From assembly GCF_037902255.1 (NCBI RefSeq), contig NZ_CP147990.1, positions 1,440,001 to 1,472,000 on the forward strand: a stretch of 32,000 nt of DNA, in the 5' to 3' direction. The first letter of the stretch is position 1, and each line of letters begins with the position of its first letter. The notes beneath the pieces were generated by a model that was not told the DNA's origin, did not search any database, and worked only from the letters and a program-made list of their open reading frames with translations. The translations under genes and the position numbers were made by a program. This document shows positions 7,371-23,318 of this stretch, in pieces. Origin of the DNA: Candidatus Electrothrix sp. GW3-4. Lineage in GTDB: Bacteria; Desulfobacterota; Desulfobulbia; Desulfobulbales; Desulfobulbaceae.

Positions 7371-9068
7371 TTAGCGAAACCTGACTTGATAAAGAATATA
7401 GTTGAGATGTGAATACACTGCAATCAAATGGTTGCTGTTGAACTGATTCCAGAGTTTTTGTTGACCGGGTTCTGCGCTCTTGAGCCACTGCACCATGAGA
7501 TCTGCTCGGATAATAAGATGAGTTATTCCTTGATGTTGAAGGTTTTCCTGGAGCGTCTCAATATCGCTCTCCGGTTGCTGAAGCCAAGAGAGGAGGAGGT
7601 CGTGATTCCCGTAAGAATCAAAAATATGTTTTTTGTCCAGGTAATATCCCCGTGATCCTAGAAAAAGACAGAGTATTTTTGCGGAATCCGAGAGATTTTT
7701 ATTCGCATACTGCATGACCGGATATTCCGGGATCTTTCTGTTTAGATATTCATCTCTGGTCAGGCGGCCTGTGATATAGCTGAACGGATCAACATCCTTG
7801 AATTGTTTCCCGATATAACTGGCGTTCCAGAGAAGGAGCAGGCAGACTGTCAGCGGCCAGACCAGCTGAACTAAGCCGCTTTTCTTTGCATATTTTTCAG
7901 ACAATTTTTTTAGGTTGTTGAGCCCGTAGATGGAGAGGATAACCAGAAAGGGCACTATCGGTACTAAATAGCGGATGCGCAGGACACCGGTGTTAAAGGC
8001 AAAGAGAAAATAGAAAAGAGAAAAGGCCGCCAGCGTCGCTTTTTCAAGACGAGGCTGCTTCTTCTCCTGCCTGATACCCAGAAAACTGAGGAGCGGGAGG
8101 AAGAAGAGAAAGGGATTGAGGCGACCGTCAAAATAACGGGGATCATTATCCTGGCCTTCAAAGAAGATCCGGACAGGGAGGAGAAGAAGTTGCCAGATAT
8201 TTTCCTGGTAGAGTACGTATCTTGTGGCGAAAACGCCCCGGGCACCGCTGCTGACTTGCTCAGCATTGTTTTCTTCGTTTTCTTTGACTTGGTGCTCTGT
8301 CGGTGCCGGAGAAGCTGTTGGATTAAAGAACCCATTATAGAGTGGATAGAGGGGATTGCCGGTCCAGACAGCGTTTCTGATCAGGCAGGGTGAGGCAGTG
8401 AGCAAGGCTGCAAGGCAGAACAGGACGGCTGCCTTTACTGCCGCAGGAGCAGTCCCCTGTTTTTGCTCCTGGGTTCTGATGAACAGAATCGGTAGGATAA
8501 AGGTAAGAATAAACAGTACCAGCAGGCCGTTATATTTGGTGCCGATTCCTAAACCACAACAGATGCCCGCCAGCAGCAGATCACGCGGTTGTTTTGTTTC
8601 CAGCCATCGAAAGAGCAGGAGCAGGGCCGCAGTGCTGAAAAAAACAAGCCCGAGATCCACATAGACCGTGATAGATAGCTTGACGATGATCGGGATACTG
8701 AGAAAAAATAGGGCCCCCAGCAGCCCGTAAGTGGCGGATAAGCGTTTTTTCAGGTGGAGATAGAGAAGTAGAGCTGTACCGAGCCCGAAAAATATGTGAA
8801 TGTACTTGGCTAGGATATCGCTGCCAAGAGAAAGCGCCCCCATGTACAAGAGGTCGAGGTTCATGGGGTAGTAGGAGAAGACCAGCTCTGGGATCTCGTA
8901 GATGCCCCCATGTTGGAGGTAGAGTTTCGGGAGCTGGAGATGATGGATCAAGGCATCCCGACTGAAGGGAGGTGTGCAAGCCAGCACGGCAAGACTGACA
9001 AGTAGGCCTCCAAATAATATCCTGATAAGGATAAGAAACCCGCGTTTTTGGGAGACAGGATAGTGCAA
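7371..9068 (-). CDS. Polytopic GT-C-type glycosyltransferase (ArnT/PMT_2-like), putative
   Basis: 565 aa with a TTG start 3 nt after the upstream stop. There are about 12 TM segments over roughly 390 aa, then a soluble domain of about 170 aa. An acidic residue sits in the first loop (PPFSRDALIHH) and a GIGTKYNG motif resembles phospholipid-carrier-dependent glycosyltransferases. The family call rests on architecture and motifs only. Confidence 0.55.
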   Translation of the reverse strand: MHYPVSQKRGFLILIRILFGGLLVSLAVLACTPPFSRDALIHHLQLPKLYLQHGGIYEIPELVFSYYPMNLDLLYMGALSLGSDILAKYIHIFFGLGTALLLYLHLKKRLSATYGLLGALFFLSIPIIVKLSITVYVDLGLVFFSTAALLLLFRWLETKQPRDLLLAGICCGLGIGTKYNGLLVLFILTFILPILFIRTQEQKQGTAPAAVKAAVLFCLAALLTASPCLIRNAVWTGNPLYPLYNGFFNPTASPAPTEHQVKENEENNAEQVSSGARGVFATRYVLYQENIWQLLLLPVRIFFEGQDNDPRYFDGRLNPFLFFLPLLSFLGIRQEKKQPRLEKATLAAFSLFYFLFAFNTGVLRIRYLVPIVPFLVILSIYGLNNLKKLSEKYAKKSGLVQLVWPLTVCLLLLWNASYIGKQFKDVDPFSYITGRLTRDEYLNRKIPEYPVMQYANKNLSDSAKILCLFLGSRGYYLDKKHIFDSYGNHDLLLSWLQQPESDIETLQENLQHQGITHLIIRADLMVQWLKSAEPGQQKLWNQFNSNHLIAVYSHLNYILYQVRFR

Positions 9069-9071
9069 TGA

Positions 9072-10238
9072 TTACTCTTTGTTGATGATATCGAGGAGTT
9101 CATTGGGGAGACGGCCTCCATACACCTTGCCGTCAACAATAAAAGAGGGGGTGCCGACAATATTATTTTTCAGGCCGGTACGAATGTCAGACTCGATTTT
9201 TTTGAGTGACGCGGGCGAATACATATTTTTTTTGAGCTGATCTACATCAAGCTGCAATTTTGCGGCAAATTTTTGGATATTAAAGGCGGTGATGCCACTT
9301 CGAATCGCAGTATACATCGCATCATTGGCCTCCCAGAATTTACCCTGTTGAGCAGCTGCAATAGTCAGCAAGGCCAGTTCCCCTGAACCCGTGTGAAAGG
9401 GCTTTTTTACTAATACAGTATTAAACTTTTCGTCCATAGGGTAGTGGTAATGGACCAGGCGGATCTTGTCGGGATATTTATCGACAAGAAGGCGTAAGAA
9501 AAAATGGACCTTGCTGCATTGAAAGCATTGATAGTCTGTAAATTCTTTGATGGTCAGCTTGGGGTTTTCCGCCCCTATCCAGGGATGTCCTTCTTCTGTA
9601 ACGCCTTTAGCGATGTTTTGCGCTAGTTGCGGATACTGGTACTCCCAATAGGTGGGAATAAAGATTTTTAATGTCCCAAAGGTGAGGACGAGCAGCATGA
9701 GTAGGGTCAGAGTGATTTTTTGCCGGAGCAGAAATTCTAATCCTTTTCGTATACCAGAGAAAAGAGAGTGCTTGTTGAACCGTCTTCGGATGATCCAGGT
9801 CTGGAAGAGCAAGGCAAAGCTGACTACATAAGTAAAAAGGCAAACTATGCAATAGGACTGAATTTTTACTGCGGTTATGTAGCCAAAGAAAAGATCAATA
9901 AGTGAGAAAAGAAGGGCGATAAGGAAGAGCAGATCCCACAAACCTCTTCTTTCTTCTGTGTTGACTTGGGCAGGCAGGCTCAGAAGAAAAAAGAGGGTGT
10001 ATCCCAGAACACCCCAGAGCGCCACAGGGAGACCCAGCAGGATCGACCAAGGGCTTTGTGATACTGTATCGCAATTGATGGATTTAGAAATGGCACAAAA
10101 ACTGCTGTAACCGATGTCTGTATAGTTTCGGTAATGAGACAGGGCGAGGTAAGCCGAGGCCGCGATGCCGATAGCGGCAAGAATAAGTATCGGAACAGTG
10201 TAGACACGATAGGGTAATGGTAATGTTTTTTGCTTCAT
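9072..10238 (-). CDS. VKOR (vitamin K epoxide reductase family) fused to a DsbA-like thioredoxin domain
   Basis: 388 aa. The VKOR loop cysteine pair is C-x7-C (FCAISKSINC), followed by SPWS. The membrane-embedded CxxC is CIVC, the same tetrapeptide as human VKORC1. The C-terminal periplasmic domain carries the DsbA-type motif FTDYQCFQC. GAGGAG RBS lies before ATG 10238. Confidence 0.85.
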   Translation of the reverse strand: MKQKTLPLPYRVYTVPILILAAIGIAASAYLALSHYRNYTDIGYSSFCAISKSINCDTVSQSPWSILLGLPVALWGVLGYTLFFLLSLPAQVNTEERRGLWDLLFLIALLFSLIDLFFGYITAVKIQSYCIVCLFTYVVSFALLFQTWIIRRRFNKHSLFSGIRKGLEFLLRQKITLTLLMLLVLTFGTLKIFIPTYWEYQYPQLAQNIAKGVTEEGHPWIGAENPKLTIKEFTDYQCFQCSKVHFFLRLLVDKYPDKIRLVHYHYPMDEKFNTVLVKKPFHTGSGELALLTIAAAQQGKFWEANDAMYTAIRSGITAFNIQKFAAKLQLDVDQLKKNMYSPASLKKIESDIRTGLKNNIVGTPSFIVDGKVYGGRLPNELLDIINKE

Positions 10239-22216: not shown

Positions 22217-22250
22217 AAAAGTTGTTTTTGCCTGAAGTGAAGAAAAGAGG

Positions 22251-23318
22251 TTACTTGCCGTACATCTTTGTATAATATTCCTGGTAGGAACCATCCATAA
22301 CCGATTCCATCCATTCCTGATTATCCAGGTACCAGGTGACGGTTTTTTCAATGCCCTGTTCAAAGGTGTATTTGGGTGTCCAGCCGAGTTCCCGATCAAT
22401 TTTGTCCGCATCAATGGCATAGCGACGATCATGCCCGAGGCGATCTTTGACAAAGGTGATCAATGTACGTCGGGGTTTTCCAGAGGGGAGAAGGCCGAGT
22501 TTTTCATCCAGCATATCGCAGAGCAGCTCCACGACCTGGAGATTGTTTTTTTCGTTATGCCCACCTATATTATAAGCTTCCCCTAATCTTCCCTGCTCAA
22601 CGACCCGGACAATGGCCTCGCAATGATCCTGTACATAGAGCCAATCGCGTACATTGCCGCCGTCCCCATAGACCGGGAGGTCTTTGCCCTGCCTGCCGTT
22701 ATTGAGCATGAGGGGAATCAGTTTTTCCGGGAATTGATAAGGGCCGTAATTATTCGAACAATTGGTAATGAGAATGGGCAGGCCGTAGGTGTGGAAATAA
22801 GCCCGTACCAGGTGGTCCGAGGATGCTTTAGAGGCGGAATAGGGCGAGCGGGGATCATACGGGGTTTGTTCGTTGAAAAAACCAGTTGCTCCCAGGGAGC
22901 CGTAGACCTCATCCGTACTCACGTGCAGAAAACGGCACTGCTCGTTATTCTCTCTTTGGTCCAGCCATTGTTTTTTCGCCGCCTCAAGTAGGCTAAAGGT
23001 GCCGGTGATATTCGTTCGAATGAACTCGGCTGGCCCGGTGATGGAACGATCGACATGGGATTCAGCTGCGAAATGAACCACTGTATCAATCTGTTCTTCC
23101 TGGAATAGATTAGCCAGAAGGGCTTGGTCGCAGATATCACCATGGACAAAACGATAGTGAGGGTGCTCGGTTACGTCCTCAAGGTTATGCAGGTTGCCAG
23201 CATAGGTCAGCTTATCAAGGTTGATAATGCGCCAGTCTTGGCGTGTTTCAAGGAGGAGGCGGATAAAATTTGCGCCGATAAAACCGCAGCCGCCAGTAAC
23301 CAGTACTGTTTTCGCCAT
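22251..23318 (-). CDS. rfbB: dTDP-glucose 4,6-dehydratase (RmlB)
   Basis: 355 aa. The Rossmann motif is [14 protein letters not shown]. The catalytic YSASKASSD (YxxxK) and the overall SDR-extended pattern are typical of RmlB. Confidence 0.92.

Follow-up and report, generated by a model that had tools for sequence, protein, structure and literature searches.

The locus of the major type IV pilin of the cable bacterium Candidatus Electrothrix sp. GW3-4 was analyzed within a stretch of 32,000 nucleotides ("the window": contig NZ_CP147990.1, positions 1,440,001 to 1,472,000; all coordinates below refer to its own numbering). On the minus strand, the pilin gene is followed by the genes of two TfpW-like membrane proteins, A and B, which combine a glycosyltransferase domain of GT-C type with C-terminal TPR repeats, and further downstream by a VKOR-DsbA fusion and a PMT_2/ArnT-type GT-C protein. 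This core recurs at pilin genes across the Desulfobacterota, and in the window it is interrupted by a strain-variable insert of sugar genes. The whole is probably a two-layer pilin maturation unit, where the core would glycosylate the major pilin and form its disulfide, and the insert would supply a particular sugar donor. The initial annotation of the window had treated the region as one island; comparison with E. scaldis, Rat3 and E. communis separates it into core and insert. Its central idea, that a polyprenyl-phosphate-sugar synthase feeds periplasmic GT-C enzymes modifying the adjacent pilin, whose disulfide is formed by the VKOR-DsbA protein, is supported by fold, by motif and by strong comparative evidence.

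Conservation of the pilin module

Related loci were collected from species-representative genomes by using conserved peptides of the TPR family as the only query, and the best 80 of at least 592 matching stretches, all from Desulfobacterota, were retained. Their six-frame open reading frames (ORFs) were searched with the window proteins and with the prepilin motif, and all ORFs were also clustered against each other. Loci with enough flank were considered testable, and a pilin was counted when its ORF, on the same strand, ended at most 1.2 kb before a TPR-GT-C gene. Throughout the work, equivalog calls were judged against NCBIfam cutoffs and domain calls against Pfam cutoffs.

A same-strand module emerged, composed of a pilin gene, one to three TPR-GT-C genes, a VKOR-DsbA gene and a PMT_2 gene. 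The pilin is found directly upstream of the TPR-GT-C gene in 54 of 65 testable loci, and this neighbourhood check bears out the proposed linkage of the family to pilin genes across genomes. Of 53 testable loci, 42 have VKOR-DsbA and 38 have PMT_2 downstream of the TfpW-like gene; in Electronema KV the module is uninterrupted. Cultured bacteria with the core include Desulfofustis glycolicus and Desulfoprunum benzoelyticum (L023, L054), Desulfobulbus alkaliphilus and Desulfosarcina widdelii. Since it recurs in dozens of independent genomes, the arrangement is not due to chance. A cluster of family 2 glycosyltransferases (GT2) is represented in 45 of the 80 loci, directly after the module in 21; its best NCBIfam models are AglJ, PpgS, Dol-P-hexose transferase, PgfS and ArnC, all under their cutoffs. 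This recurrence agrees with the earlier placement of the window GT2 in the Dpm1/ArnC/GtrB class.

The pilin of the window is preceded, 88 nt upstream of its ATG, by a sigma54-type -24/-12 element (TGGCACAGATACTGT, 21497..21511, minus strand). In related loci, 37 of 60 pilins have such an element in the 300 nt ahead of them, against an expectation of 0.007 per 300 nt, and 44 of 80 loci encode a PilR-type sigma54 activator upstream of the pilin. Promoter and activator together mark the locus as the major, PilR/sigma54-controlled pilin locus of these bacteria.

GT-C fold of the membrane proteins

Proteins A (18818..20893, minus strand, 691 aa; the annotated start of the 710-aa ORF lies 19 codons later) and B (16738..18828, minus strand, 696 aa) are paralogs, with 34% identity overall and 44% in the N-terminal domain (N-domain). 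Protein A is 100% identical to a database protein of Candidatus Electrothrix sp. GW3-4. A and B both show a polytopic N-terminus, the same motifs after the first transmembrane (TM) helix (WHLDDTGNILHN in A, WHFDDLPNILNN in B) and C-terminal TPRs. Sequence comparison of A and B with Pfam and NCBIfam produced TPR matches only; PDB sequence searches, run with single proteins and with family profiles, matched no GT-C chain, and tblastn of the TPR protein N-domain against plasmids found no match. Among 40 N-domains of the family, Pfam gave isolated weak matches to PMT_2 (3.6e-4) and GtrII (7.9e-4), for one member each. Membership in the TMTC family was rejected, as PF08409 (DUF1736) matched neither A, nor B, nor any of the 40 N-domains at E<=1.

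Structure prediction was more informative. The full-length AlphaFold2 model of protein A (pLDDT 87.9) retrieved only TPR proteins in Foldseek, and for this reason the N-domain was remodelled alone (pLDDT 86.6, pTM 0.88); 11 long membrane helices precede the TPRs. The top matches of the N-domain model are ArnT (5ezm, 5f15), yeast Pmt4 (9e61) and STT3 of human and yeast oligosaccharyltransferases (6s7o, 8age, 7oci), with probabilities of 0.99-1.00 and TMq values of 0.47-0.51. All matches with a probability of at least 0.6 are GT-C proteins (ArnT, Pmt4, STT3, ALG3), and all non-GT-C matches fall below 0.2. The model thus confidently matches GT-C enzymes only, as had been proposed for the TPR-membrane proteins, and the predicted fold is that of GT-C enzymes, a result reached through structure and not by sequence methods alone.

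Right after TM1, in the first loop, lie two aspartates, D35 and D36, which do not vary in either of two alignments (40 and 44 homologs); other invariant polar loop residues are H94, H101, R158, K206, H304, E363, H368 and R369. Given 11 helices, and if the N-terminus is cytoplasmic, the TPR domain would be periplasmic.

The PMT_2/ArnT-type protein (7371..9068, minus strand, 565 aa) exceeds the cutoffs of PF13231 (47.4 bits, cutoff 26.1) and PF02366 (47.5 bits, cutoff 22.7), and Asp38 and His43 of its first loop are invariant in the family alignment. The Pfam matches cover only the N-terminal PMT/PMT_2 region (residues 85-220). A GT39 protein O-mannosyltransferase proper was considered and rejected, since neither MIR domains nor the PMT_4TMC module were matched in Pfam.

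The pilin and its VKOR-DsbA neighbour

The pilin gene (20953..21423, minus strand), recognized as PilA-like by its N_methyl motif, encodes a prepilin of 156 aa and a mature protein of 142 aa, 19% of which is Ser or Thr. In an alignment of 31 module-linked pilins exactly two cysteines are invariant, corresponding to Cys47 and Cys130 of the window pilin. The VKOR-DsbA fusion (9072..10238, minus strand) matches PF07884 (VKOR) over residues 16-148 with 98 bits, and PF13462 (Thioredoxin_4) and PF01323 (DSBA) over residues 216-384 with 47.8 and 39 bits. The role of disulfide partner initially given to this protein gains from its being a conserved member of a locus whose pilins carry two invariant cysteines; to judge from the sequences, these would fit a dedicated disulfide-forming VKOR-DsbA partner.

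An intrinsic-terminator-like hairpin (20896..20931, minus strand; 16-bp stem, -19.1 kcal/mol, z = -5.1) follows the pilin stop codon and precedes the first GT-C gene. It is followed by a U-run, and none of 200 shuffled sequences was as stable. The hairpin is probably an attenuator, by which the ratio of pilin to enzymes would be set.

Strain-variable insert

Between the TPR genes and VKOR-DsbA, the segment 10260-16730 contains wecE, a GNAT gene, a GT2 gene, two methyltransferase genes and the gene of a 603-aa membrane protein. In E. scaldis the order rmlB-rmlC-pilin-TPR-TPR-VKOR-DsbA-PMT_2-gspF is found, with the same flanks as in the window (YitT, HcyBio ... MurJ), and the insert is absent. 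Rat3 carries at the same site genes for a DegT protein, a GT2, a hexapeptide acyltransferase, a FabH-like enzyme and an acyl carrier protein (ACP), together with the same methyltransferase pair and a homolog of the 603-aa protein. In E. communis the part made of cassette, VKOR, PMT_2 and gspF is intact. The cassette of Electronema JC encodes a UDP-GlcNAc 2-epimerase along with another protein weakly resembling PMT_2, and a Desulfobulbaceae metagenome-assembled genome has a different one upstream of the pilin, encoding an AMP-ligase, an ACP, a ketoreductase, a GNAT and a small EamA protein.

The constant parts of the cassette are the aminotransferase, the ArnC/PgfS-like GT2, the two methyltransferases and the 603-aa protein, and the N-acylation chemistry varies; in terms of gene content, this reads as the pattern of a glycan-diversity cassette. 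The GC content at 12000-16000 is 0.33-0.37, the lowest of the window (the TPR genes have 0.42-0.45, the flanking regions about 0.5), and is consistent with a horizontally exchanged cassette. A single horizontally acquired island was rejected, since the synteny of the core is conserved vertically and variation is confined to 10260-16730.

A different site is occupied in Desulfosarcina widdelii (L047:15090-16298, minus strand), where a fusion of GT2 with a GtrA/DPMS TM region and a 577-aa protein without Pfam match lie between VKOR-DsbA and PMT_2; judged by its content, this position is taken as another variable slot of the module.

Sugar genes

RmlB (22251..23318, minus strand; dTDP-glucose 4,6-dehydratase, TIGR01181 512 bits, cutoff 365, and Pfam) and RmlC (21674..22216, minus strand, 180 aa; dTDP-4-dehydrorhamnose 3,5-epimerase, TIGR01221 276 bits, cutoff 156) are encoded upstream of the pilin, a position that for rmlB is conserved in Electrothrix. 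The true start of rmlC is later than that of the 259-aa TTG ORF, according to the gene call in locus L001. The first gene of the insert (15576..16730, minus strand) encodes a WecE-type dTDP-4-keto-6-deoxyhexose 4-aminotransferase, with 608.8 bits for NF008687 (cutoff 375) and 574.9 bits for TIGR02379 (cutoff 434.85). The initial names RmlB, RmlC and WecE are therefore retained, all three passing curated equivalog cutoffs. The two WecE models name different C4 epimers, which leaves the C4 stereochemistry unsettled and 4-acetamido-4,6-dideoxygalactose (Fuc4NAc) specifically not established.

The name WecD is weak for the GNAT N-acetyltransferase (14881..15579, plus strand; Pfam Acetyltransf_1): the protein aligns full length to the WecD model NF008212, with 56.2 bits vs a cutoff of 219, and reaches 23.2 vs 195 bits for TIGR02382. 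The window has no rmlA. With C4 not settled, Fuc4NAc could not be upheld as the product; the best reading of the predicted pathway is a dTDP-4-acetamido-4,6-dideoxyhexose.

The GT2 (13956..14879, plus strand) has a GT-A domain (PF00535, 88 bits) with the motif DGDLQD, and two C-terminal TM helices (231-249, 267-285). It aligns end to end with PgfS (2-304/308) and with ArnC (3-312/316), and is a putative polyprenyl-phosphate sugar synthase of the ArnC/PgfS/GtrB class, an equivalog of neither PgfS nor ArnC.

Both methyltransferases are S-adenosylmethionine-dependent. The one at 13019..13885 (plus strand; Pfam Methyltransf_11 and others) is kept in the inserts of E. communis and Rat3; an N-terminal CxxC...CxxC, resembling a zinc ribbon, and a C-terminal hydrophobic stretch (residues 225-266) suggest a membrane-anchored enzyme acting on a lipid-linked substrate. 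The second (12116..12994, minus strand; Pfam Methyltransf_23) is divergent from it, with 24 nt between the start codons (12994-13019), which must place the promoter of either gene within its neighbour. E. communis (L083) and Rat3 (L086) have this divergent pair as well.

A family of unannotated membrane proteins

Of the four GT-C-like enzymes initially proposed, A, B and the PMT_2 protein are supported; sequence comparison gave no support for the assignment of the 603-aa polytopic protein (10260..12071, minus strand; "poly616" family). This protein has no Pfam, NCBIfam or PDB match. Pfam analysis of 36 family members gave only TPRs, confined to longer homologs, and hhalign comparisons of the family with the TfpW-like and PMT_2 families gave probabilities below 2%. 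A loop of about 55 residues follows TM1 and contains a DGD motif, in which D43 and D45 are nearly invariant. The family has more than 500 metagenomic relatives, many of them fused to C-terminal TPRs.

To describe its neighbours, metagenome loci were collected with the 603-aa protein itself as query, and the 34 that reach 8 kb or more were analyzed. Of these, 24 contain a homolog of the window GT2 and 21 a DegT/WecE aminotransferase. One locus (L088:3859-13153, contig Ga0208863_1000612) encodes in order a DegT protein, an SDR dehydratase, a second DegT protein, a PglD-like hexapeptide acetyltransferase, a GT2, a methyltransferase, a 727-aa homolog of the 603-aa protein and a 232-aa pilin. No TfpW-like gene is present there, and the 727-aa homolog takes the TfpW position beside the pilin.

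The polytopic nature of the protein, its D43/D45 loop, the TPR-fused homologs, the partnership with GT2 and DegT genes and the position in L088 make the 603-aa protein, most likely, a candidate periplasmic transferase for the lipid-linked sugar of the cassette, or otherwise a flippase. The family is flagged here as a candidate new class of glycosyltransferases. A bolder proposal, that it founds an unrecognised family of polyprenyl-phosphate-sugar-dependent periplasmic glycosyltransferases and, with the two TfpW-like proteins and the PMT_2 protein, builds a multi-sugar methylated O-glycan on PilA, is put forward only tentatively, and we would not count on it.

Proposed mechanism and alternatives

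From the above data we infer the following scheme, including its catalytic steps, the lipid that carries the sugar, the nature of this sugar and the role of the pilin as its acceptor. The prepilin would be held by the inner membrane, its globular domain projecting into the periplasm, where VKOR-DsbA would make the Cys47-Cys130 disulfide and pass the electrons on to quinone. RmlB would produce dTDP-4-keto-6-deoxyglucose, the substrate for WecE, which would aminate C4; the GNAT would then acetylate the amine, the ArnC/PgfS-like GT2 would load the sugar onto undecaprenyl phosphate, and the two methyltransferases would decorate it. The TfpW-like enzymes would bind the pilin through their periplasmic TPR domain and, together with the PMT_2 enzyme, move sugars from polyprenyl-phosphate donors onto pilin Ser/Thr residues, the 603-aa protein serving as transferase (most likely) or flippase for the cassette sugar.

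Several observations weigh against this scheme. The Foldseek E-values are weak (0.02-0.2) and the TM-scores modest, so that the GT-C call for protein A is a fold-level assignment; an hhalign comparison of the TfpW-like family with the PMT_2 family of the same loci reached a probability of 38.6%, suggestive only; and the likeness to TfpW is one of described architecture, position and motif, not of sequence alignment. The assignments of GT2, GNAT and PMT_2 are class-level, the GT2 scoring well below the equivalog cutoffs (243.5 vs 500 bits for PgfS, 184.5 vs 529 bits for ArnC) and the GNAT well below those of WecD. To our knowledge no ArnC-type enzyme uses a dTDP-sugar, and such use by the present GT2 is a step that we infer. 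The window contains neither rmlA nor a flippase gene. In E. communis, the pilin and TPR genes are about 70 genes away, by locus tags, from the part with cassette, VKOR and PMT_2. Finally, among the 34 loci of the 603-aa family, the pilin motif was found in only 6 and a TfpW-like gene in 2, as compared with the 24 containing the GT2; the primary partner of the family is thus the GT2, not the pilin, and a cassette with the 603-aa protein may serve an acceptor other than pilin.

These points bear on the choice between pilin and other acceptors. A general periplasmic O-glycosylation system, acting on many envelope proteins and having the pilin as one client or merely as a co-regulated neighbour, would accord with TPR domains as generic protein-binding modules, with TMTC, PMT and Pgf as models, and with the fact that Pgf, whose PgfS model is the best match of the window GT2, modifies many Ser/Thr-rich proteins; up to three TPR-GT-C paralogs per locus could mean several substrates, and in E. 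communis the enzymes lie apart from the pilin. It is rather improbable nonetheless, given the tight same-strand adjacency to the pilin in 54 of 65 loci, under the pilin's sigma54 promoter, and given that TfpW is described solely as a pilin-modifying enzyme.

Less probable still is an acceptor of lipid or polysaccharide nature (lipid A, lipopolysaccharide core, O-antigen or sheath polysaccharide), modified in the manner of ArnC/ArnT or GtrABC, with the pilin linkage due to co-transfer or co-regulation. ArnT is the top fold match, the GT2 aligns full length to ArnC, the 603-aa family is mostly without a pilin neighbour (6 of 34 loci with the motif), and the GC content of the insert (0.33-0.37) resembles that of O-antigen-type cassettes. 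Such an acceptor, however, leaves the periplasmic TPR domains, the conserved VKOR-DsbA and the adjacency to the pilin unexplained, and no wzx, wzy, waaL or lpx gene is found among the recurrent neighbour clusters of the 80 loci. That the TPR-membrane proteins are non-catalytic factors of pilus assembly or stability, like PilF/PilW/Tgl, with the sugar genes as unrelated passengers, is very improbable: it follows the database names of the homologs ("Tfp pilus assembly protein PilF" or "TPR protein") and a paper which took the TPR proteins for protein-protein interaction factors (PMC10580974), and is opposed by the GT-C fold, by the invariant first-loop DD and further invariant polar loop residues, and by the polyprenyl-phosphate-sugar synthase-like GT2 genes recurring in the loci.

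Glycosylation of the major pilin, as proposed here, would concern PilA, reported to exceed all other proteins in expression in the proteome of a cable bacterium, where its role was unexplained (PMC10580974). Pilin glycosylation is not mentioned in three papers on cable bacteria (PMC11976967, PMC13047784, PMC12093952). If the scheme is correct, GT-C/TPR pilin glycosylation would be standard equipment of the major pilin locus across the Desulfobacterota, not a Pseudomonas curiosity, and TfpW-type glycosylation would here be joined to a dedicated disulfide-forming enzyme and to a second GT-C. PilA with a strain-variable, N-acylated amino-dideoxyhexose glycan is a prediction of the scheme, and could affect how protein and carbohydrate signals of the envelope are read. 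Should the bolder proposal on the 603-aa family also be correct, the glycosylated pilin could contribute structurally to the layer of the envelope, rich in carbohydrate, that holds the conductive fibres.

Other features of the window

Every gene listed in the initial annotation was found at its place by ORF listing and by Pfam and NCBIfam scans. The upstream edge of the cluster is a tRNA-Pro(CGG) gene (23493..23569, minus strand; ARAGORN, Rfam tRNA 63.9 bits), directly upstream of rmlB; the accessory-gene region of pilA in P. aeruginosa likewise adjoins a tRNA gene. The plus-strand trio of methyltransferase, GT2 and GNAT genes is convergent to the minus-strand run. The TPR protein genes A and B overlap by 11 nt, and wecE starts exactly 7 nt further downstream. 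Intergenic distances are mostly tiny, as initially stated; three larger gaps depart from this: 250 nt upstream of the pilin, where the sigma54-type promoter lies, 59 nt after the pilin, which contain the hairpin, and 134 nt ahead of gspF.

The minus-strand run closes with the gene of a GspF/PilC-type platform protein (5998..7236; Pfam T2SSF). The protein passes the GspF cutoff (TIGR02120, 442.7 bits, cutoff 424) and is far under the PilC models (337 and 306 bits vs 700), so that the "pilin" operon ends in a platform gene of type II secretion system kind. In E. scaldis and E. communis, too, gspF directly follows the PMT_2 gene.

In non-cable Desulfobacterales (L004, L005, L036, L052, L053, L073 and others), the genes upstream of the pilin encode, in this order, HcyBio, an S26 signal peptidase, PyrB, PyrC and PilR, and in 11 loci a LarC-type nickel-insertion protein is encoded nearby. 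Adjoining the HcyBio gene of the window is a 268-aa ORF (24160-24966, minus strand) with no Pfam match; genes of similar size (269-274 aa), likewise with no recorded Pfam match, are found at this position in E. scaldis and Rat3. Between murJ and gspF, a 498-aa protein (4283-5779, plus strand) gives weak zinc-metalloprotease matches of reprolysin/matrixin-like type. An M4 thermolysin-like peptidase gene lies directly 3' of the TPR genes in E. laxa.

Comparison with known systems

The closest known enzyme is TfpW (AAM52060.1) of P. aeruginosa group IV strains (Pa5196/PA7). This protein of 646 aa begins in the cytoplasm and crosses the membrane with 11 TM helices; periplasmic loop 1 carries a DDX motif, the C-terminal part forms a TPR domain in the periplasm, and ArnT is the best template (bioRxiv 10.1101/2020.04.19.049825). 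Its gene lies directly downstream of pilA, and TfpW is needed for O-glycosylation of the pilin with D-arabinofuranose from a polyprenyl-phosphate donor, made in some species by clustered biosynthesis genes (bioRxiv 10.1101/2020.04.19.049825). Compared by description, protein A shares the approximately 11 TM helices, the first-loop DD, the C-terminal TPR domain and the structural template, and its gene follows the pilin after 59 nt. The YX6PFX7P motif of TfpW periplasmic loop 4 is represented only by Y288-x6-P295 (the Tyr nearly invariant, the Pro invariant), its Phe and second Pro being unmatched. TfpW acts alone or with TfpX, whereas the locus described here has two paralogs, a PMT_2 GT-C, a VKOR-DsbA fusion and an ArnC-type GT2; the sugar differs (D-arabinofuranose versus an amino-dideoxyhexose pathway), and so does the phylum, here Desulfobacterota.

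The streptococcal Pgf machinery, made of a GT2 and GT-C proteins, O-glycosylates Ser/Thr-rich regions (PMC12041528). In S. mutans it comprises the GT2 PgfS, the GT-C proteins PgfM1 and PgfM2 and the epimerase PgfE, and couples GT2 and GT-C for extracytoplasmic modification, as proposed here. Unlike the present locus, Pgf is Gram-positive, has many substrates, transfers N-acetylgalactosamine and lacks a pilin, TPRs and VKOR-DsbA.

In the ArnC/ArnT and GtrA/B/C systems, as in our scheme, undecaprenyl phosphate is charged with one sugar by a GT2 that has a pair of TM helices at its C-terminus, and a GT-C enzyme passes this sugar on in the periplasm; the Arn pathway also has an aminotransferase upstream. 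Their acceptors are lipid A or O-antigen rather than pilin, and the nucleotide would be dTDP here, as opposed to UDP in systems of ArnC/ArnT type. A flippase of ArnE/F or GtrA type is not encoded in the window; a 124-aa EamA protein is encoded in one of the related loci, L082.

In eukaryotic TMTC1-4, luminal TPRs are joined to a membrane domain of GT-C type whose loop 1 has an acidic pair; these enzymes transfer sugars from polyprenyl-phosphate donors to Ser/Thr acceptors. The TPR proteins of the locus resemble TMTC1-4 and PMT in architecture, but DUF1736 is unmatched and the PMT_2 protein is without MIR domains. PilO/TfpO/PglL enzymes are encoded beside pilA and glycosylate the pilin in the periplasm. 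They belong to the Wzy_C/O-antigen-ligase family and use undecaprenyl-pyrophosphate-linked oligosaccharides, unlike the enzymes described here; a mechanism of PglL/TfpO type was rejected, as Pfam and NCBIfam found no Wzy_C or O-antigen ligase domain in any protein of the locus.

Bacterial fusions of VKOR with thioredoxin-like domains replace DsbB/DsbA, and likewise join the VKOR membrane domain to a periplasmic thioredoxin-fold domain. Unlike such fusions in general, the one described here belongs to a pilin locus as a constant component, pointing to a dedicated client; no description of this linkage was found in the literature. With TfpW and streptococcal Pgf already described, to call the whole an undescribed system, as was initially done, is too strong. 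What appears to be undescribed is more specific: the fixed set of TfpW-like, VKOR-DsbA and PMT_2 GT-C proteins that a whole phylum has at its major pilin locus, and the strain-variable amino-sugar cassette of cable bacteria with its accompanying family of unannotated membrane proteins.

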